Assembly: GCA_018268675.1 (NCBI GenBank)
Contig: JAFDWB010000069.1
Location: 19,838 to 83,837 of the forward strand
From: Actinomycetota bacterium
GTDB taxonomy: Bacteria; Actinomycetota; Thermoleophilia; Solirubrobacterales; 70-9
Length of the DNA: 64,000 nt
Direction of reading: 5' to 3'
Position 1 is the first letter of the stretch; every line of letters starts with the position of its first letter. Of this stretch, positions 6,014-61,651 are shown piece by piece. A model generated the notes under the pieces. The model ran no database searches. It was not told the DNA's origin and saw nothing but the letters and a program-made list of their open reading frames with translations. Both the position numbers and the translations under genes were made by a program.

Positions 6014-6933
6014 CGCGGCTTTTCGAGCACCGCGTAGCAGCAGTCACCACCGGCGAAGTGGTCGACGAGGTAGACGAACGGCAGCAGTGGCAGGCTGATC
6101 GCGTAGGAGAGCCAAAGCTTCCAACCGGGCGTCCAACGGCCGGCGATCAGGAAGTGGATGCTGTACGCGGTCGAGATCGCGGTCGAGCTGGTCCCCACGT
6201 CGCGCACGCCGAGCCCGAACCGGGAAGCGATGCGCTCCAGGGCGCGGGGCGAAAAATGCTGTTGGTGGCGAGGCAGATCCAACGGAGCCCAGCGGCTCCG
6301 GTAGAGGCGCCGCTGCCAGCAGGCCCAGTTCGGCACTTCGATCGCCAGCAAGCCTCCCGGAGCGAGCCTGGACACCGCCCGCTCGACGGTCGGGACGGGG
6401 TCGACGATGTGCTCGAGGGCGTGCGCCATCGTGATCAGCTCGAAGCTTTCCTCCGGCCACGGGTCATCTTCGAGGGTTCCCTGGTGGACTCGGGCGCCCC
6501 GCCGCTCCGCCGCCGCGATGGCGGCGGCGCTCGGGTCGATGCCGAAGGTGGTCCAGCCGCGCTGGGCGAAGTCCGCCAGCAGAGCCCCCGCCCCGCAGCC
6601 GACGTCGAGGACCTTGCCCGCCTTCACGTCGGACAGCTCGAACGGGGGCCGGCGGTTGCGGCGAGCGGCACTGCGCTCCCGATAGCGGGCGCGCAGGCGG
6701 TGCAGCGGGCCGGCGGCGCCGGCGCCCGAGTGTTCGTAGTAGCCCTCGTAATAGCCCGCCGCGTAGTAGCGAGCGAGCTCGTCGTTGGTCAGCTGGGGGT
6801 CGGTGACCCCGAAGCAGCAGGCCGGGCATTCGACGATCGTGAAGGGCCCGTCGCCGGTGTCGAGGCGGTCATAGGCGGCATACGGGGTCGGGCGCAGGGG
6901 GCCGCCACAGATCGGACAGGAGGTCGGCTTCAC
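6010..6933 (-). CDS. Class I SAM-dependent methyltransferase with N-terminal zinc ribbon
   Basis: CPICGG...CPACC Cys pairs at the N-terminus, motif I VLDVGCGAGALLADF, and a later ITMAHALEHIVDP segment. Confidence 0.75.
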   Translation of the reverse strand: MKPTSCPICGGPLRPTPYAAYDRLDTGDGPFTIVECPACCFGVTDPQLTNDELARYYAAGYYEGYYEHSGAGAAGPLHRLRARYRERSAARRNRRPPFELSDVKAGKVLDVGCGAGALLADFAQRGWTTFGIDPSAAAIAAAERRGARVHQGTLEDDPWPEESFELITMAHALEHIVDPVPTVERAVSRLAPGGLLAIEVPNWACWQRRLYRSRWAPLDLPRHQQHFSPRALERIASRFGLGVRDVGTSSTAISTAYSIHFLIAGRWTPGWKLWLSYAISLPLLPFVYLVDHFAGGDCCYAVLEKPR

Positions 6934-28664: not shown

Positions 28665-28701
28665 AGGGGCACCGGCTGGCGCCTCGGAGCTGGCGCCGGG
28701 C

Positions 28702-28745
28702 CGGTTGGTGAGTTGACCCCGCTGGGGTGTGGTCAACTCACCAAC
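28702..28745. repeat. Perfect 16-bp-stem hairpin (GGTTGGTGAGTTGACC / GGTCAACTCACCAACC, 12-nt loop)
   Basis: Read directly from the sequence. Lies 38 nt after the PPTase stop. No T-tract follows. Confidence 0.6.
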
Positions 28746-28844
28746 CGTCCAGGGTTTTCAGGGATGGGCACGGTGTTCGAGGCCTTTCGCATGGGAGCGC
28801 GTGACGAAGTGCGCGGCCTCGGTGCGTCTTCCGTCCGCGGTCTG

Positions 28845-28893
28845 GGTTGATGGGCCGAAAACCGCTGATATGGAGCGCTTTTCGGCCCATCAA
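28845..28893. repeat. Palindromic element family A, copy 1 (intergenic)
   Basis: GTTGATGGGCCGAAAA-CCGCTGATATGGAGCGC-TTTTCGGCCCATCAAC. 45 of 49 nt are identical to the copy at 57490-57538. Confidence 0.8.
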
Positions 28894-28977
28894 CGTCGGG
28901 GGGGGCGCGGAAGGCGCAGACGCTTGGTGATTTGAGGGCGCCAGGGCCCACACAACTCAGCAAGCGACGGGGACCCC

Positions 28978-39753: not shown

Positions 39754-40759
39754 ACGCCAGCGTGATCGCCCGTCGCACCGGCTGCGCGTAGACGACGTCG
39801 TCCTCGCAGGCGAGTGACCGAGCCAGTTCGAGCCAGCGCCCGGCACGGTCGGGAGCGTCGACCACTTCGACCGCGACCGGCACGTCGCGCCGCAACGCGA
39901 GCACCCGGTCCCCGTGCGGCTCCCCCTCCCCGCGATACCCCCAGACCCCGCGCAACGCGGTCGCCCCCGCCGCGCCCTCACGCCGCAGCTGGTGGACGAG
40001 CTCGAGGTAGACGGGATGCCTGGAGCGGGCCGCGACCTCGGAGGTCACCAGCGTGACCCGCGTCGCCTCGCCGTGGAGACATACTCTCGTATAGCGAGAG
40101 TAAGTCTCCACGCCCTCCACGGTGACGAGGTGCGCCGCGCCGTCGACCTCTCCAAGCGCCGCCTCGACCGCTGCCCGGTTCCCCACCCCCACCGTCATCG
40201 CGGGCACGCCGCGATTCCCCGCGACGAACCGGGCCCGCCGCCGCTCCCCCTCGAGCACCCCGTCCACCCCGAGCACCACGGTCGCCGCCGCCGCCCGATG
40301 CCGCCGAAGCGCCGCCACTGCCCCGAGGTGCGGCGCCGTCGGCCCCGTCCGCGGCCCCCACACCGTCACCTTCACCAAGTCCGGCCCCCCATCACCAATC
40401 GCGCCCTCCGCCGCACCCCCCGTCCCTTCCCCGTCTTCGACCCCCTCCACCACGATCAGCCCCTCCGCCGCGATCCCTCGCACCTCCTCCACCAGCCCTT
40501 CGACCACCCCCGGCTCCCCCACCGCGACCGCGACCAGCGGCGCGTCTTCCGACAGCGACAGCAGCCGGTCGGTCCGCAGCCGGTGCTTGGCGCCGAACCC
40601 CTCGACCGCCCGCACCAGCGCCGCCGCCCGTACCCCACGCCGCGCGCACGCGTCCATCACCGCGGACTCGAGCGGCCCGTCGCCGTCGCGGTCGCGCTCG
40701 CCGAAGTGGAAGCGCATCTGCAGGAGCGCGTCGCGCGCGTCGCCGCCCCCGCCCATCAC
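39752..40759 (-). CDS. Triple tandem DUF190 (PII-like fold) protein
   Basis: Three ~95-aa repeats, each with the DUF190 pattern (hydrophobic strand, ..A..G..GAT.LR...G.G...H......L....P). Example, repeat 3: VTLVTSEVAARSRHPVYLELVHQLRREGAAGATALRGVWGYRGEGEPHGDRVLALRRDVPVAVEVVD. Its start overlaps the crcB stop. Confidence 0.7.
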   Translation of the reverse strand: MMGGGGDARDALLQMRFHFGERDRDGDGPLESAVMDACARRGVRAAALVRAVEGFGAKHRLRTDRLLSLSEDAPLVAVAVGEPGVVEGLVEEVRGIAAEGLIVVEGVEDGEGTGGAAEGAIGDGGPDLVKVTVWGPRTGPTAPHLGAVAALRRHRAAAATVVLGVDGVLEGERRRARFVAGNRGVPAMTVGVGNRAAVEAALGEVDGAAHLVTVEGVETYSRYTRVCLHGEATRVTLVTSEVAARSRHPVYLELVHQLRREGAAGATALRGVWGYRGEGEPHGDRVLALRRDVPVAVEVVDAPDRAGRWLELARSLACEDDVVYAQPVRRAITLA

Positions 40760-41525: not shown

Positions 41526-41553
41526 CGCAGCCTCCTACGCGCCGTCTCGACGT

Positions 41554-41606
41554 CGGTAGGAGCCATCAGCGGTCGCGCCGCGGTTATGGAGCGAGCCCCA
41601 TCGCTC
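41554..41606 (-). promoter_or_regulatory. Fluoride riboswitch (crcB RNA motif) aptamer
   Basis: The minus strand reads GAGCGAUGGGGCUCGCUCCAUAACCGCGGCGCGACCGCUGAUGGCUCCUACCG. This aligns position for position with the known aptamer pattern GGGCGAUGAGGCCCGCCCAAACUGCCC...GGGCUGAUGGCCUCUAC. It sits directly upstream of two crcB genes. Confidence 0.85.
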
Positions 41607-41672
41607 GGGTCAGGAGGCGAACCTTACCCAAGGTCGAAGGGTTACCGAGCAAACCACCTCGAGGAGGCAGAG

Positions 41673-45303: not shown

Positions 45304-45376
45304 TGGCGAGGGGCGGACTCGAACCGCCGACACCGCGATTTTCAGTCGCGTGCTCTACCAGCTGAGCTACCTCGCC
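45304..45376 (-). tRNA. tRNA-Phe: tRNA-Phe (anticodon GAA)
   Basis: The minus strand GGCGAGGTAGCTCAGCTGGTAGAGCACGCGACTGAAAATCGCGGTGTCGGCGGTTCGAGTCCGCCCCTCGCCA folds as a 73-nt cloverleaf: 7-bp acceptor stem, GAA in a CTGAAAA loop, and a TTCGAGT T-loop. CCA is not encoded. Confidence 0.95.
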
Positions 45377-56346: not shown

Positions 56347-58071
56347 TTGCATGCGGGCGTGCGAATCGCCCGCGCCGCCGCCCTCTGCACCCTCGTCGTC
56401 GCGATCGGCGTCGTGCTCGTCTCGGGCGGCTCCGACAGTGGCCCGCGCACGCCCCCGGCGCTCCCGGGCCTGCCGCCGCCTTTTCTCGGCACCGCGGTGA
56501 GCGGGGACGGGGGGCTGACCGCAGCGGTCGACGCCTACGGCAACGTGGTCGACCTGCGGGCGCCGGGACCGGCGGGCGCGCCGCTGATCCACAACCCCTC
56601 CGCCCGCCAGGCCGCCGGGACGGTACCCGCCGACACGGGGATCGTCCCCTATGTGCGGCTCGGTGGCGGCGAGGCGCGGGCGATGTGGCGGGCCGACTCG
56701 GTGTCTCAGCGCTACCTGCCGGGGACGAACGTGGTGCGGACGGTCGCCCGGTTCGGCCGCGCGCGCGTGGTGATGACGGTGGCCGCGGCGGGCGGCTCCC
56801 TCGCGATGGTGATCCGCGCCGCGGCGGCGACAGGGATCGCGACCTCCTCCGTCACCCTCGACCTGGCCCCGACGATCCGCTGCGCTCGCGAAAGACGGGC
56901 CGGGCAGGTCGACCTCCTCTGTGGCCCGAGGAACGGCGGGCCGCCGACGCTTCATCGCCATCTGCGTCCGAGCGGCGGGGCCGTGGCGCGGGCGTGCCGG
57001 CAGGTGGTTCGGACCGCGACCGGGGAGGCACGAGGCTGGCTCGGGCGATCGACGGCGCTCGGGTCCGGCGCACCGCGGTGGGCGCGGGCGCTCTACCGGC
57101 GCTCGCTGCTGACGGTCCACGCGCTGACCTCGCGCCGCACCGGCGCGGTCGCGGCCGGAGCGCGCGACGGCTGGGCCTACGTCTGGCCCCGCGACGCCGC
57201 CACCGCCGCGCTCGCCCTCGAGGCGTCCGGCCACGGCGCCGAAGCCCGCCATGTCGCGCGCTTCCTCACCGGCCTCGACCTTGCCGCCGCGGCGCGCTTC
57301 ACCGAAACCGGCGCCCCGGTCCCGGGCCGTCCTGCCCAAGGCGACGCGGCCGGCTGGGTCGCCATCGCCGGCCGCGCCACCGGAGTCCCGCCTCCCGACC
57401 GTCCCTTCGCCTGGCGCAACCGCGCCGACTACCAGGAGTCCACCCCCGGCACCTACCTCGGCAACGCCCTCGCCGCCACAGGCTCCCACGTTGACGGGCC
57501 GAAAACCGCTGACATAGAGCACTTTTCGGCCCATCAACATGGAGGTGCGGGCGAGATCGCGCGCGAATTCGGTACCTCGCGGGGCCTCGTGCGGAGCGCC
57601 GGCGACCCGGGCTCCGGCCTCGACTCCGCCGCCGCCTGGGCAGTGCGCCCGTTCAGAGTCCCGCCCCTCTACCCCGCCGCCGCGAAGACCCTCCAAGCCC
57701 TCGTCAGCCAAGGCACCAGATTCGGGATCACCCCCGGCGAAGGCTGGACCGGCGGCCACGACCCCTGGTCCGCCCCGACCGCCTGGAGCGCCTGGGCCCT
57801 GGCGGGTCTCTCGGCCGCGCCGGAGAGGGCCGGCGGGAGGGGGCCTCAACCGAACCTCCCCGCAGTTCGTGAGGGCGAGGCCCCCTCCCGTCGGCCCCCT
57901 GGCCCGCGCCAAGAAGCCATTGCCCTCCTCCAAGACCTCCGCCGCGCCGCGACCCCCGCGGGCGACCTCCCCGAGCGCGTCGGCGTCCACACCGGGATCC
58001 CGACCTCGACCACGCCGCTGCTCTGGTCGAGCGCCTTCACCGTCCTCGCCCTGCGTGAACTCTGGCCCTGA
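56347..58071 (+). CDS. Glycoside hydrolase family 15-like (glucoamylase/trehalase-type) protein with N-terminal anchor, carrying two palindromic-element inserts in frame
   Basis: GWAYVWPRDAATAALALEASGH (the GH15 W-x-RD region), DPWSAPTAWSAWALAGL and TPLLWSSAFTVLALRELW. Start is either TTG 56347 or GTG 56359. Confidence 0.7.
   Translation: MHAGVRIARAAALCTLVVAIGVVLVSGGSDSGPRTPPALPGLPPPFLGTAVSGDGGLTAAVDAYGNVVDLRAPGPAGAPLIHNPSARQAAGTVPADTGIVPYVRLGGGEARAMWRADSVSQRYLPGTNVVRTVARFGRARVVMTVAAAGGSLAMVIRAAAATGIATSSVTLDLAPTIRCARERRAGQVDLLCGPRNGGPPTLHRHLRPSGGAVARACRQVVRTATGEARGWLGRSTALGSGAPRWARALYRRSLLTVHALTSRRTGAVAAGARDGWAYVWPRDAATAALALEASGHGAEARHVARFLTGLDLAAAARFTETGAPVPGRPAQGDAAGWVAIAGRATGVPPPDRPFAWRNRADYQESTPGTYLGNALAATGSHVDGPKTADIEHFSAHQHGGAGEIAREFGTSRGLVRSAGDPGSGLDSAAAWAVRPFRVPPLYPAAAKTLQALVSQGTRFGITPGEGWTGGHDPWSAPTAWSAWALAGLSAAPERAGGRGPQPNLPAVREGEAPSRRPPGPRQEAIALLQDLRRAATPAGDLPERVGVHTGIPTSTTPLLWSSAFTVLALRELWP
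57490..57538. repeat. Palindromic element family A, copy 2 (inside the GH15-like ORF)
   Basis: GTTGACGGGCCGAAAA-CCGCTGACATAGAGCAC-TTTTCGGCCCATCAAC, translated in frame as VDGPKTADIEHFSAHQ. Confidence 0.8.
57835..57889. repeat. Palindromic element family B, copy 1 (inside the GH15-like ORF)
   Basis: GGGAGGGGGCCTC-AACCGAACCTCCCCGCAGTTCGTGAGGGC-GAGGCCCCCTCCC, with a perfect 13-bp stem. Confidence 0.8.
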
Positions 58072-58115
58072 CCGGCCCAGCGCAGGAGGACCCCGCCGCC
58101 TGGCAGGCTTCACGG

Positions 58116-58640
58116 ATGCGCGTCAGGCCGGCCCGCGGTGACGACGCGGCCGAGCTCGGCCGCGCGCTGAAGGTCGTCGTCGAGGAAGACTGGCTGGCGC
58201 TCGAGCCACCGATGACCGCGGCCGAGCTGGCGGCGGGGCTCCGCACGCGCCTCGACGAGGGACAGAAGCTCCTCGCCCTCGAAGACGACGACGGCGCGTC
58301 CGCGGGGGAGGGCCCGCTCGTCGGTCTGATCAACCTCCGCCCCACCCGCATCGACGGGGTCTGGTCGATCGGCCTCTGGATCCTCCCCGGCCATCGGGGC
58401 AAGGGCGCCGGACGACTGTTGGTGGACGCCGCGATCGAGGCCCGCCCGCCCGGCGTCCACAAGATCGAGCTCGAGGTCTGGCCCGAGAACGAGGCCGCGA
58501 TCCGCCTCTACGAACGCGCCGGCTTCCAGCGCGAGGGCCTGCGCCGCGACCATTACCGCCGCCGCGACGGCCGCCTCCGCTCCTCGGTGATCATGGCCCG
58601 CCTTTTCCCCGACGGCACGCCGCCGCCCCCCGACAAGTGA
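58116..58640 (+). CDS. GNAT family N-acetyltransferase
   Basis: WILPGHRGKGAGRLLVDAAI (acetyl-CoA Q/RxxGxG/A motif) and ENEAAIRLYERAGFQREG. Confidence 0.8.
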   Translation: MRVRPARGDDAAELGRALKVVVEEDWLALEPPMTAAELAAGLRTRLDEGQKLLALEDDDGASAGEGPLVGLINLRPTRIDGVWSIGLWILPGHRGKGAGRLLVDAAIEARPPGVHKIELEVWPENEAAIRLYERAGFQREGLRRDHYRRRDGRLRSSVIMARLFPDGTPPPPDK

Positions 58641-58683
58641 GTTCGCAGAAACCCGCGGTATGCGCGGGAAAGTGCGAACGCGC
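58641..58683 (+). repeat. Hairpin element family C, copy 1 (starts at the first base after the GNAT stop codon)
   Basis: GTTCGCAGAAACCCGCGGTATGCGCGGGAAAGTGCGAACGCGC, with outer stem GTTCGCA/TGCGAAC and inner stem CCCGCG/CGCGGG. Confidence 0.75.
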
Positions 58684-58721
58684 TCGGGGCCGGGCCCGGG
58701 ATCGCGGCGACGTCGCCGGGG

Positions 58722-59285
58722 TCAAAGCTCGGCGAGCGCCAGCGTCACGGCCTCCTCGGCCGTCTCGGCCTGGATGACCCCCGGCGCGCCCTCCATACGG
58801 TCGCTCCCGACCAGACCCCAGCTCCGAAGCGCGACGACGGTCCGCCCCAGCGACCGCGCGTGCCCGATCTCCGACAGCGTCCCCCACTCGCCGCCGATCG
58901 CGATCACGACCTCTCCCGACCCGACCACCGCCAGGTTCCGCGCCTGCCCGATCCCCGTCGCCACCACGTGCGTGCAATCCGAATTCGCCTCCCCCAGATC
59001 ACTCCCCGGCAGCACCCCGACAACTTCGCCACCCGCCGCAGCCGCCCCCCGAGCCACAGCCGCCATCACGCCCCCGCGCCCCCCACAAACCACCGTCACG
59101 CCAACTTCCCCCAACCGCTGCCCGACCTCCTCCGCAAGCCCCCAAATCTCGGAGCCCTCGACAGCCCCACCCGCCCCGATGACGGCGACCTGCCGCCCAC
59201 GCCGATAGGCCCGGCGTGAGGGACCCCCGAACGAACCTCCCCGCAGTTCGTGAGAGAGGGGGTCCCTCACGCCGGGCCCCAGCAC
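58722..59285 (-). CDS. TIGR00725-family (SLOG/LOG-like Rossmann) protein
   Basis: RQVAVIGAGG..., VVCGGRGGVMAAVARGA and VIAIGGEWGTLSEIGHA. The N-terminal ~25 aa are encoded by repeat element B copy 2. An alternative start exists at GTG 59270. Confidence 0.65.
   Translation of the reverse strand: MLGPGVRDPLSHELRGGSFGGPSRRAYRRGRQVAVIGAGGAVEGSEIWGLAEEVGQRLGEVGVTVVCGGRGGVMAAVARGAAAAGGEVVGVLPGSDLGEANSDCTHVVATGIGQARNLAVVGSGEVVIAIGGEWGTLSEIGHARSLGRTVVALRSWGLVGSDRMEGAPGVIQAETAEEAVTLALAEL
59216..59270. repeat. Palindromic element family B, copy 2
   Basis: GTGAGGGACCCCC-GAACGAACCTCCCCGCAGTTCGTGAGAGA-GGGGGTCCCTCAC. It has the same 22-nt loop core as copy 1, but the stem differs at four positions, and each difference is compensated on the other arm. 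Confidence 0.8.
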
Positions 59286-59295
59286 GCCGGTCCCC

Positions 59296-61590
59296 TCACG
59301 CCGCTCTCCGTACGGCCCGAGCCCTCTGCATCCGCCCCATCAACTCCAGCGCCCCCGCCTTATGCAGCGGTTCGTTGAGGTTCCCGCACTTCGGACTCTG
59401 CACACAGCTCGGACACCCGCTCTCGCACGGACACTCGGCGATCAACCGCTCGGCGTCCCCCACCAACCGCTCGAACTCCTGGAACCCCCGCCTGGTGATC
59501 CCCACCCCGCCCGGGTGCCCGTCGTAGATGAAGATCGTCGCGCGGCCGGTCTGGAAGTGGACGTTGGTGGAGAGCCCGCCGATGTCCCAGCGGTCGCACA
59601 TCGCGATCAGCGGCAGCACCGCGATCTGCGAGTGCTCGGTCGCGTGCAGCGCCCCCAGCAGCACCTCGGGCGGCAGCGCGCCGAAGTTCCCCTCCGGCAG
59701 CACATACCAGAGCGCCTGGGTGACGAAGCTCTGCTCGGGCAGCTCCAGGGCGACGATGTCGATCGGCTCGTTGTCGGCGATCGAGACCCGCTGGAAGGCG
59801 ATCACCTGCTCGGTCACCGACACCTCGCCGAAGCTCAGCTGCACCCCCGCCACCTCGCGCTGCTCGTGGATGCGCTCGATGTAGATGTCGGTCTCCTTCT
59901 TCGGCCGCGTGTACCAGTCGCCGTCGAAGCGCGAGACCAGCGCCCGCCGCTCCCGCACGTCGAGCTGCTCCACCTCATACGAGCGCCCCAGGTGCAGGTA
60001 GACCGCCCCCGGGTGGATCGTCGTGAACGCGCGCTCCGCCTCGACCAGCCCGAGCATCTCTCCCGACTCCCGCTCGATCACCGCCACCGAATCCGCCGAG
60101 GCCGAGCGCAGCGGGATTCGCGAGGCGACGAACTCGCCCCGCCGCGGCGCCAGCCCGCCGCCCGCCCGCCGCAGCTCCCCCGCCTCCAGCAGCCGCTCCA
60201 CCCGCTCCCGCCACCCGGGCCCGAAGAACTCCTCGTCGGCCTCGCCCAGCGGCAGCTCGTAGGCCGCCGCGACCAGGTGGCGCATCGCGATCTGCTCGTT
60301 GCCGTGGTCGAGGATCGCCGCCTCCACCGGCCGCCCGAGGAACTCCTCCGGGTGGCGGCAGAAGAACTGGTCGAGGGCGTCCTGCCCGGCCACGTAGACC
60401 GCCAGCCCGCGTCGGCGCCGCCCTGCCCGCCCCCACATCTGCCGCAGCGACGCCACCGTCCCCGGGAAGGTGACGCAGATCGCCGCGTCGAGCTCCCCGA
60501 CGTCGATCCCCAGCTCGAGCGCGTCCGTCGCCACCACCGCCAGCAGCTCCCCGCGCGCCAGCCGGTCCTCGATCTCGCGCCGCTGCTGGGGCGTGTAGCC
60601 GCCGCGGTAGGGGGCGATCAGGCGCGCCAGCTCCGGCCGCCCCCGCCGCTCCAGGTTTTCTCGCGCGAAGCGCTGGATCAGCTCGATCCCGCGCCGCGAT
60701 TTGAGGAAGCAGATCGTCCGCACCCCGTGGGTGACGAGCTCCGCCAGCAGGTCCGCCGCCTCGGCCAGCGCCGAGCGCCGCGTCCCGGTCGCCTTGTCGA
60801 TCAGCGGCGGGTTCCACATCGCGACCTCACGCCCCGCCCGCGGCGCGCCGTCGTCGTCGATCAGGCAGAACGAGGTGCCGACCAGCCGCTCGGCCAGCTC
60901 CGCCGGGTTGGCGATCGTCGCCGAGGCGAGCAGGAAGCGGGGTTCGGACCCGTAGGCGCGGGCGACCCGCCGCAGCCGCCGCAGCACGTTGGCGACGTGG
61001 GACCCGAAGACGCCGCGATAGGTGTGGGCCTCGTCGACCACCACCCACTCGAGGTTGGCGAAGAAGTCGCCCCACTTCTTGTGGCTGGGGAGGATCCCGA
61101 CGTGCAGCATGTCGGGGTTGGTGAGGATCAGGTTCGATTTGCGGCGGATCGCCGGGCGCTCCTCACGCGGCGTGTCGCCATCGTAGATCGCCTGCCGCAA
61201 CCCCGGCGGCCGCAGCTGGGCGAGCTTGCGCGCCTGGTCCTGGGCGAGCGCCTTGGTCGGGTAGAGGTAGAGCGCCCGCGCCTTCGGCCGGCGCGCGATC
61301 CCGTCGAGCACCGGCAGGTTGAAGGCGAGGCTCTTGCCCGAGGCGGTGCCGCTGGTGACGATCAGGTCGGCGCGCGGGGCCGTCTCCCAGGCGCGCAGCT
61401 GGTGCGAGTAGAGCGCCTCTATCCCGGCCCGCCGCAGCGCCGCGACCAGCTCCGGCGCGAGCCCGTCGGGCAGCGGCACCGGCTTCGCGCCGCGGTCGGG
61501 CTCCGCGGTCTCGGCGACGATCCGCCCGTCCCGCCGCGCCGGCGAGATCGCCACCCCCCACTGCGTGTCAATGATCGACGAGCGCGCCAT
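59296..61590 (-). CDS. DEAH-box helicase with C-terminal DUF1998 zinc domain (MrfA/YprA family)
   Basis: Motif I TSGTASGKSLAF, motif II VVVDEAHTYRG, and a C-terminal CPCESGCPSCVQSPKCGN four-Cys cluster. ATG 61590 (GGGGGAGGG upstream) is preferred to the ORF-track GTG 61620, which lies inside repeat C copy 2. Confidence 0.85.
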   Translation of the reverse strand: MARSSIIDTQWGVAISPARRDGRIVAETAEPDRGAKPVPLPDGLAPELVAALRRAGIEALYSHQLRAWETAPRADLIVTSGTASGKSLAFNLPVLDGIARRPKARALYLYPTKALAQDQARKLAQLRPPGLRQAIYDGDTPREERPAIRRKSNLILTNPDMLHVGILPSHKKWGDFFANLEWVVVDEAHTYRGVFGSHVANVLRRLRRVARAYGSEPRFLLASATIANPAELAERLVGTSFCLIDDDGAPRAGREVAMWNPPLIDKATGTRRSALAEAADLLAELVTHGVRTICFLKSRRGIELIQRFARENLERRGRPELARLIAPYRGGYTPQQRREIEDRLARGELLAVVATDALELGIDVGELDAAICVTFPGTVASLRQMWGRAGRRRRGLAVYVAGQDALDQFFCRHPEEFLGRPVEAAILDHGNEQIAMRHLVAAAYELPLGEADEEFFGPGWRERVERLLEAGELRRAGGGLAPRRGEFVASRIPLRSASADSVAVIERESGEMLGLVEAERAFTTIHPGAVYLHLGRSYEVEQLDVRERRALVSRFDGDWYTRPKKETDIYIERIHEQREVAGVQLSFGEVSVTEQVIAFQRVSIADNEPIDIVALELPEQSFVTQALWYVLPEGNFGALPPEVLLGALHATEHSQIAVLPLIAMCDRWDIGGLSTNVHFQTGRATIFIYDGHPGGVGITRRGFQEFERLVGDAERLIAECPCESGCPSCVQSPKCGNLNEPLHKAGALELMGRMQRARAVRRAA

Positions 61591-61608
61591 CAACCCCGCC
61601 CTCCCCCG

Positions 61609-61651
61609 GCGCGTTCGCACTTTGCGGCGCTATCCGCGGGTTTCTGCGAAC
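61609..61651 (-). repeat. Hairpin element family C, copy 2 (between the DHPS-family gene and the helicase gene)
   Basis: The minus strand reads GTTCGCAGAAACCCGCGGATAGCGCCGCAAAGTGCGAACGCGC. The first 18 and last 15 nt are identical to copy 1. Confidence 0.75.

Follow-up and report, generated by a model that had tools for sequence, protein, structure and literature searches.

The stretch of DNA analysed here, referred to as the window, comprises 64,000 nucleotides of contig JAFDWB010000069.1 from an Actinomycetota bacterium of the order Solirubrobacterales. It contains two copies of a 67-nt hairpin element (family B), a repeat in which the loop is conserved and the stem may take almost any sequence that pairs. 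Copy 1 (57829-57895, + strand) consists of a 5' arm at 57829-57847, a loop at 57848-57876 and a 3' arm at 57877-57895. Copy 2 (59210-59276, + strand) has its 5' arm at 59210-59228, its loop at 59229-59257 and its 3' arm at 59258-59276. In both copies 29 nt separate the arms, as stated in an initial annotation made from the sequence, and the arms are longer than had been claimed there. Outward pairing of copy 1 reaches 57824-57900 (arms 57824-57847 and 57877-57900, 24 nt, 92% complementary), and perfect pairing of copy 2 reaches 59208-59278 (arms 59208-59228 and 59258-59278, 21 nt, 100%). The loop core, CGAACCTCCCCGCAGTTCG-TGAG, occupies 57851-57873 (+) in copy 1 and is identical in copy 2 (59232-59254, +); it includes a CGAAC/GTTCG mini-stem and the invariant motifs AACCTCC and TGAG. 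The 22-nt core GAACCTCCCCGCAGTTCGTGAG, which the annotation had reported as common to both copies, occurs exactly twice in the window with 3 mismatches allowed, when 0.00 occurrences are expected from shuffled sequences. Between the two copies the 13-nt inner arms show 4 differences, and it can be read directly from the sequence that every change is matched on the opposite arm. The two copies fold with energies of -64.0 and -60.3 kcal/mol (z = -4.9 and -9.2, respectively). Folding is about as good on one strand as on the other, the values for both strands lying between -60 and -64 kcal/mol (z = -4 to -9).

The genes surrounding the two copies are arranged as had been described. Copy 1 lies in frame in a GH15-like open reading frame (ORF) of 574 aa (56347-58071, + strand), where it is part of a variable linker near the C-terminus (...GGRGPQPNLPAVREGEAPS...). 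This ORF gives a weak match to PF00723 (24 bits), and its coding potential in a codon-position model is low for its length (16.7 for 570 codons). Having received two different hairpin insertions, it may be a fast-evolving or decaying gene. Copy 2 heads a minus-strand ORF of the SLOG cluster-4/TIGR00725 type (187 aa, 58722-59285), the first ~30 codons of which, counted from GTG 59285, traverse the element. The SLOG/TIGR00725 family profile begins at residue 32 of this ORF, and the window has no in-frame start codon between copy 2 and the SLOG domain; the protein therefore starts at GTG 59285 (or GTG 59270), with an extension of about 30 residues. The neighbouring gene, also on the minus strand, encodes an MrfA/TIGR03817-type DEAD/DEAH helicase (59296-61593), and 19 nt separate its stop codon (59298-59296) from copy 2's 3' arm. 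A placement just past the stop of a converging gene is the typical position of the family. Relatives with a helicase 85-92% identical keep the same gene order.

To collect the family, one genome per species was scanned for the 19-mer CGAACCTCCCCGCAGTTCG. At least 116 stretches matched, almost all of them in metagenome-assembled genomes of Solirubrobacterales; the single match in a Bauldia genome is a chance one, with no hairpin around it. Seed copies could be placed in one common register in 113 cases, and a covariance model was built from the ungapped alignment of the 111 distinct copies. When the window was searched with this model, copy 2 scored 90.8 bits, copy 1 scored 80.3 bits and no other member was detected, the next-best matches (at most 26 bits) being unrelated hairpins. 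In 0.74 Mb of fetched loci the model found 127 true copies, about 27 of which were not among the seeds, and more than 130 family copies were recovered in Solirubrobacterales genomes. The element is thus not confined to two copies. Its density is about 1 copy per 25-30 kb, with which the 2 copies in the 64 kb of the window agree, and extrapolation gives a likely content of the order of 100-200 copies per genome in soil Solirubrobacterales. Viral contigs yielded zero family copies. At the gathering thresholds of Rfam 15 neither hairpin was matched, a search of the whole window returning only a tRNA and a fluoride riboswitch; in E-value mode only look-alikes of microRNA precursors were obtained, at no more than 28 bits against thresholds of 52-100. 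No literature match was found for the loop core (both strands, in DNA and RNA spelling) or for palindromic repeats of Solirubrobacterales. With neither an Rfam model nor a literature match, this 67-nt hairpin family is undescribed; its hosts belong to a barely studied soil order, and dispersed palindromic repeats as such are known in many bacteria.

The unit defined by the alignment is a 19-bp stem around a 29-nt loop (19 + 29 + 19 = 67 nt). In the 113 registered copies, stem positions 1-19 were 97% Watson-Crick, and pairing fell to 67%, 38% and 52% at positions 20, 21 and 22. The loop consensus is GAR-CGAACCTCCCCGCAGTTCG-TGAGNGA, alternatively spelled GAR-CGAACCTCCnnGCnGTTCG-TGAGnGA, and the positions outside the search pattern (TGAG, G) were 99-100% conserved. 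Non-seed copies kept CGAA-CCTCC and GTTCG-TGAG invariant, and only 3-4 apical bases varied among them (CC/CT/AC/AT/C-, and A/T/C). A 5-bp mini-hairpin is formed within the loop, and in sister types its two sides are changed together (GGAAC/GTTCC, GGAGC/GCTCC). Covariation also links loop base -1 to the N of TGAGNGA (G:C 24, C:G 19, G:T 15, A:A 41, A:G 12, never T:G), and 5'-GA lies opposite 3'-GA, beside a 4-nt bulge and the mini-stem. A kink-turn is made up of a C-stem, a 3-nt bulge, tandem sheared G.A/A.G pairs and an NC-stem, and L7Ae-type proteins bind it; the likeness of the GA/GA-plus-bulge arrangement to such a motif would be a mere resemblance, present on one strand only. In 107 copies the flanks (-12 to -1 and +1 to +12) were purine-rich on the 5' side and CCCY on the 3' side. 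A mini-ORF running from the 5' arm (M-T-L-N-E-P-P-R-S-S-stop) was considered as well, and was rejected as incidental, its start codon being present in a minority of copies.

Conservation of the pairing rather than of the stem sequence, proposed from the two window copies, was evident in the 111 aligned copies, where 19 of the 19 stem pairs change on both sides. Paired cells made up 98.6% of the stem, compared with 72.1% in shuffles. There were 638 compensated cells against 139 ± 9.5 in shuffles (none of 500 shuffles was as high), and the covariation score was 0.68, compared with 0.16 for shuffled alignments and 0.11-0.14 for slid registers. Stems mutating without compensation were therefore not what the larger alignment contained. 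The non-Watson-Crick cells within the 19 bp were 15 G.U, 17 A.C and 31 other, out of 2147. When the transcribed strand was assigned from gene context, the balance of 10 G.U to 5 A.C was not a significant excess, in a comparison that is underpowered. At stem positions 20-22 frequent A.C mismatches were seen on the + strand, which correspond to G.U on the - strand. Double changes of the transversion type (flips etc.), to which no route through G.U is possible, made up 40% of the double changes between nearest orthologues and 54% of those in the whole family.

The rate at which the stem changes was obtained from 28 groups of loci with shared flanking sequence, which makes them orthologous sites in different species. 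Over 135 orthologous pairs the identity was 0.75-0.77 in the stem, 0.84 in the flanks and 0.98 at the fixed loop positions, and 526 double-sided changes were counted against 84 mismatched cells. As the stem evolves at least as fast as its mostly coding flanks and remains perfect at the same time, we infer a concerted change of both arms; compensation achieved by selection only should lag far behind neutral change. Perfect hairpins and multi-base compensatory changes are documented products of template switching in replication (PMC8794818), a mechanism that fits the perfect stems, the multi-base and transversion-type changes and the nearby inverted copies found here. Strict complementarity, the lack of wobble intermediates, the transversion-type doubles and the near-neutral rate make copying from arm to arm the best explanation for the stem. 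The family is an unusually clean natural case of compensatory evolution and a powerful data set on how the two sides of a helix change together, since the same 19 pairs can be traced through over 100 loci and through the orthologous sites of many species, which allows selection for pairing to be separated from mechanical copying.

In the window at 59200-59300 the motif GGCGTG(A)GG is present at the helicase stop, in the spacer and in one arm of copy 2; it is also found inverted in the other arm and again just beyond the element, and the empty orthologous site of locus L118 has it once only. This pile-up looks like repeated local slippage or template switching. At the same junction in the related locus L117, one arm is the helicase's own 3' end and its inverted copy stands on the other side, which hints that stems can take up flanking sequence and is equally explained by a deletion between direct repeats. 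Only this one strong case and two weak ones of a pre-existing flank with an inverted-copy arm were found. As a general origin of the outer arms, copying from nearby flank was rejected, no enrichment being detected in 106 copies.

Template switching is a mutational mechanism and not an element family, and the question arises whether the whole element might be its neutral by-product, with palindromes both made and kept perfect by switching and the loop kept by gene conversion or recent common descent. The capacity of switching to create perfect stems and multi-base compensatory changes (PMC8794818), a roughly neutral stem rate with very few mismatches and the GGCGTG(A)GG pile-up around copy 2 speak for it. 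We nevertheless consider it improbable. Template switching alone does not explain the position-specific conservation of the loop. Copies of the same genome interleave invariant loop positions with free ones (-1, N and the apical NN..N), and such a pattern, with variants coexisting in one genome, indicates position-specific purifying selection and not gene conversion. The loop is moreover the same across many species in which the stems have diverged by ~25%. The stem also breaks off abruptly after 19-20 bp in almost every copy, and the arms are generally not copies of the flanks.

The position and orientation of the copies relative to genes bear on the nucleic acid that is recognised. In 43 copies the 3' arm is followed, at a distance of 2-30 nt, by the end of an opposite-strand gene, and in ~30-40 copies a gene on the same strand ends just before or within the element. 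The loop's own TGA is used as the gene stop in nine copies, the whole element is read through by ten ORFs, and copies are also present within operons and inside ORFs. Relative to the adjoining gene, 45 copies were sense and 39 antisense, with TGAG.G at least 97% conserved in each class. Since sense and antisense are about equally frequent and the loops of the two strands are entirely different, a function that resides in the RNA of one strand is hard to reconcile with these data. Conservation position by position, whatever the direction of transcription, would instead make DNA the most likely level at which the loop is read. A replication-strand bias, judged by the relation of orientation to local GC skew and to gene strand, was weak (p = 0.03 and 0.07, respectively, possibly one effect) and was not used.

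The main rival to a DNA hairpin is a cis-acting element of the 3' region of mRNAs, serving for instance as a 3'-exonuclease block or stabiliser, as a processing site or as a protein-binding hairpin. Its apical mini-hairpin and GA/GA-plus-bulge internal loop would adopt a specific RNA fold, perhaps one like a kink-turn, and its C-rich AACCUCC loop would mimic an anti-Shine-Dalgarno sequence, like the C-rich loops of Gram-positive small RNAs. We regard this as unlikely. The location directly after stop codons, the high stability of the hairpin whichever strand is folded, the link between loop base -1 and N, which covary, the opposed GA dinucleotides and the covarying mini-stem of sister types would all suit an RNA, and the A.C mismatches at stem positions 20-22 can be read as G.U on the minus strand. 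Yet loop conservation is identical in sense and antisense copies, and their transcripts would carry wholly different loops. In addition, G.U shows no enrichment relative to A.C, a wobble path is closed to half of the double changes, no Rfam family corresponds to the element, and copies are located inside operons and ORFs. No T-run is present beyond the hairpin on either strand, the 3' side of the minus strand being pyrimidine/C-rich, so that the GC-rich hairpin with a U-tract directly behind it which characterises an intrinsic terminator was not found in family B. Mycobacterial RNA polymerase did not terminate at hairpins lacking a U-tract (PMC3993855), and together with the copies in operons and ORFs this excludes a classical terminator. 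An analogy with a mycobacterial repeated-terminator family was dropped, as no such family is described in PMC3993855.

The initial annotation had taken the compensated stems as the signature of a functional structured nucleic acid, either an RNA motif or a DNA hairpin recognised through its loop. The second of these is now favoured, and an RNA motif acting on one strand is disfavoured by the wobble pairs, the transversions, the rates and the orientations. With wobble so scarce, doubles of the transversion type, fast-evolving stems and sense and antisense copies in equal measure, covariation alone is not proof here of a selected RNA structure. Covariation tests of the R-scape type can thus back a 'structured RNA' overwhelmingly where the constraint is probably on DNA.

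DNA-level recognition might also concern the duplex, with the loop acting as a site for a sequence-specific factor (a spaced operator CGAAC-N9-GTTCG) or as a DNA-uptake-type signal under molecular drive. The LexA box of Gram-positive bacteria and actinobacteria is CGAAC-N4-GTTCG, and its half-sites equal those of the family-B loop. Conservation independent of orientation, copies in coding regions in tolerated frames and the visible palindromic half-sites are as expected for such a site. A duplex site, however, has no need of 19-bp complementary arms, which over 95% of copies maintain; the half-sites are spaced by 9 (or 8) and not by 4, and in sister types they covary as base pairs. As an uptake signal, 1 copy per ~30 kb is far too sparse when compared with the densities of DNA uptake sequences and uptake signal sequences. 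We see only a very slim chance for a duplex site.

Comparison of orthologous loci showed that the element comes and goes. In the GH15-like gene it is present in the window and in L118 and absent from L117 and L119, the window being 63 nt longer than L117. At the helicase-SLOG junction, L117 carries an element with a GCTG loop variant, a 69-nt insertion that is read through in frame from the original GTG. The same junction is empty in L118, where the SLOG GTG overlaps the helicase stop and the product starts MRRQVAVIGAGG; a TIGR00725 orthologue devoid of the N-terminal extension, which the initial annotation had suggested looking for, therefore exists. L120 has a sister-type element there (6275-6375) and L119 an unrelated hairpin (6290-6370, stem GCTCCGCTGTTCCTT), so that the junction is a hotspot of hairpin turnover. 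A conserved AlkZ-like glycosylase gene harbours the element in its middle in five species. There the element adds exactly 60 nt to an allele, and in a tree the alleles with and without it intermingle. The length differences at the three sites (60, 63 and 69 nt) are all in frame. Having both filled and empty alleles, these sites indicate that the element is gained and lost, or exchanged by recombination, over evolutionary time.

Elements are translated in frame in the GH15-like, SLOG, AlkZ-like and GNAT genes, where they extend the N-terminus, replace the C-terminus or form an internal linker, and gene callers will be misled by them in these genomes. In the GH15-like and SLOG genes of the window the translated element would be a tolerated by-product of insertion in frame. 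In this respect family B may be likened to the Rickettsia palindromic elements, which insert in frame into unrelated genes and are translated. Those elements differ in being ~100-150 bp long, conserved throughout and coding for a conserved peptide, and are set apart by size and host. In family B only the loop-encoded peptide recurs (for example RTSPQFVREG or PNLPAVRE), in several frames and on both strands, and the copies are mostly intergenic.

Among the closest known systems are repetitive extragenic palindromic (REP) sequences and REPINs. A REP is a palindrome of 20-50 nt with a short loop and conserved stem positions that follows a conserved tetranucleotide, usually GTAG, and is read as single-stranded DNA by RAYT, a cognate Y1 (HUH) transposase present in single copy and often flanked by the repeats. 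In REPINs the ends are conserved and the middle varies with compensation (PMC3116915). With family B they have in common hundreds of short hairpin repeats that occur in either orientation and mainly at gene ends, a long vertical persistence and compensatory hairpin changes, with recognition of folded single-stranded DNA as the working model. High copy number, a mainly extragenic position and both orientations, by which REP-type repeats are known, were all found. In REP/REPIN a free spacer lies between fixed REP ends, whereas the loop is fixed and the stem free in family B, the reverse of the usual pattern of repeats. Family B also differs in having no GTAG, a length of 67 nt, no RAYT found and frequent in-frame intragenic copies.

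Close pairs of copies provide a further observation on arrangement. Among pairs at most 700 nt apart, 14 of 14 were head-to-head (-,+), representing ~7 independent loci (L041; L030; L007; L061/L112/L076; L066/L059/L108; L009; L063/L071/L087/L123). In these pairs the G-rich 5' arms face inward and the CCC flanks outward; pairs more than 700 nt apart showed every orientation. A composite element with cargo between head-to-head copies was rejected, the spacers being unrelated among loci or ordinary coding sequence. The ORFs between the inverted pairs of L009 and L087 encode a lipoprotein-like protein and an AlkZ-like glycosylase, and no RAYT-like gene or other transposase.

A true REP/REPIN system moved by RAYT (TnpA-REP) would account for the many hairpin-forming copies, mostly extragenic and at gene ends in both orientations, for the close pairs that are always inverted, and for compensatory hairpin changes of the kind noted for REPINs (PMC3116915). 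We judge it very improbable: the element has no GTAG, it is built of 67 nt with a conserved 29-nt loop and not as a 20-50-nt palindrome with a conserved stem, its conservation is reversed, and no Y1 transposase was seen near the ~130 copies, which is a weak test. Of the RAYT-like or other hairpin-binding transposase that the initial annotation had suggested looking for, no RAYT-like gene was seen in the 0.96 Mb around the copies, and a GTAG motif was likewise not found.

[quoted passage not shown] Unlike them, family B has no target-site duplication, its arms differ between all non-orthologous copies and no parent insertion sequence was seen. Arms that differ in this way are not terminal repeats bound by a transposase, and the element is therefore not a classical MITE. 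The origins of HUH Rep proteins (gemini-, circo- and nanoviruses) and the attC sites of integrons offer another parallel, in which a protein reads the structure of a single-stranded DNA hairpin together with a few loop or extrahelical bases. In the HUH Rep origins the loop motif is invariant and the stem varies with compensation. Rep origins and attC sites are present as one or a few sites per replicon, beside the rep or integrase gene, in contrast to the ~100-200 chromosomal sites of family B, which have no linked gene.

Taken together, these results lead us to propose, with about even confidence, that family B is an old, lineage-specific, insertion-polymorphic, REP/MITE-like DNA hairpin whose loop is read by a putative protein and whose stem is perfected by copying from arm to arm. 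The loop would most likely be read on DNA, probably as a folded single-stranded hairpin, by a putative trans-acting protein, for which a transposase-like enzyme and a host factor are candidates. The stem would need only to pair, with one arm serving as template for the other when DNA is replicated or repaired, through template switching or quasipalindrome correction, and selection against broken hairpins may add to this copying.

Several points weigh against this proposal. The DNA-level reading is drawn from orientation independence only, and extrusion of the hairpin in vivo is putative. A partner protein was not found: in the 0.96 Mb around ~130 copies, tblastn with three Y1 transposase sequences produced no match with E under 0.3, and this Y1/HUH search is a weak negative. 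No direct repeats of 3-6 nt, as left by target-site duplication, were detected at the boundary or shifted from it by 1-3 nt, and no GTAG or other conserved 5' tetranucleotide was present on either strand in 107 copies. No stem is common to two non-orthologous loci, which gives no indication that the whole unit has transposed recently. The GA/GA and bulge arrangement and the covariation of base -1 with N would be equally compatible with a tertiary motif in RNA, a concerted evolution of the arms could be mimicked by strong selection if populations are very large, and orientation is weakly biased relative to local GC skew (p ~0.03).

It is conceivable, though in our opinion rather unlikely, that the family is no selfish repeat in decay and forms a genome-wide system maintained by the host, a Solirubrobacterales-specific protein acting on the invariant apical module of extruded hairpins at ~100-200 gene ends while each stem is continually re-templated from arm to arm. 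If true, family B would be the first case of a large natural array whose compensatory evolution demonstrably comes from template switching and not from stepwise selection. In a more speculative variant, suggested by L117, part of the stem would arise at insertion as an inverted copy of the target flank.

Family B is accompanied by other hairpins. Family A is represented in the window at 57486-57542 and 28846-28894 and consists of GTTGATGGGCCGAAAACCGCT, a 7-nt loop and AGCGCTTTTCGGCCCATCAAC; its two copies, unlike those of family B, have nearly the same stem. The copy at 57486-57542 is in frame in the GH15-like ORF, and this segment is missing from the orthologues in L119 and L120. A third repeat family forms a nested hairpin, GAGTTCGCA-GAAA-CCCGCGG-TAT-GCGCGGG-AAAG-TGCGAAC, and has sites in the window at 58641-58690 (+) and 61635-61651 (-) and at L030:159, L055:5472 and L103:3593. 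The GNAT and SLOG genes converge on one of the copies, and a second exact 17-mer is located just upstream of the helicase. Further hairpin families were noticed in the same genomes (L040, L042, L090 and L092, with loop CGGACCTACCCGCAGGTGCGTCCG; L036/L082; L027/L036/L051/L055). Like family B, they are built of a variable but compensated stem of ~19 bp and a conserved loop with a 5-bp mini-stem, and this shared architecture suggests a general class or mechanism rather than a single family.

The window also contains a fluoride riboswitch at 41550-41614 (- strand; 41.2 bits, threshold 34) and a tRNA gene at 45304-45376 (- strand). Two unrelated strong hairpins were observed, one at 28696-28753 with 23-nt arms (91%) and a 12-nt loop, and one at 40072-40112 with 18-nt arms (94%) and a 5-nt loop.

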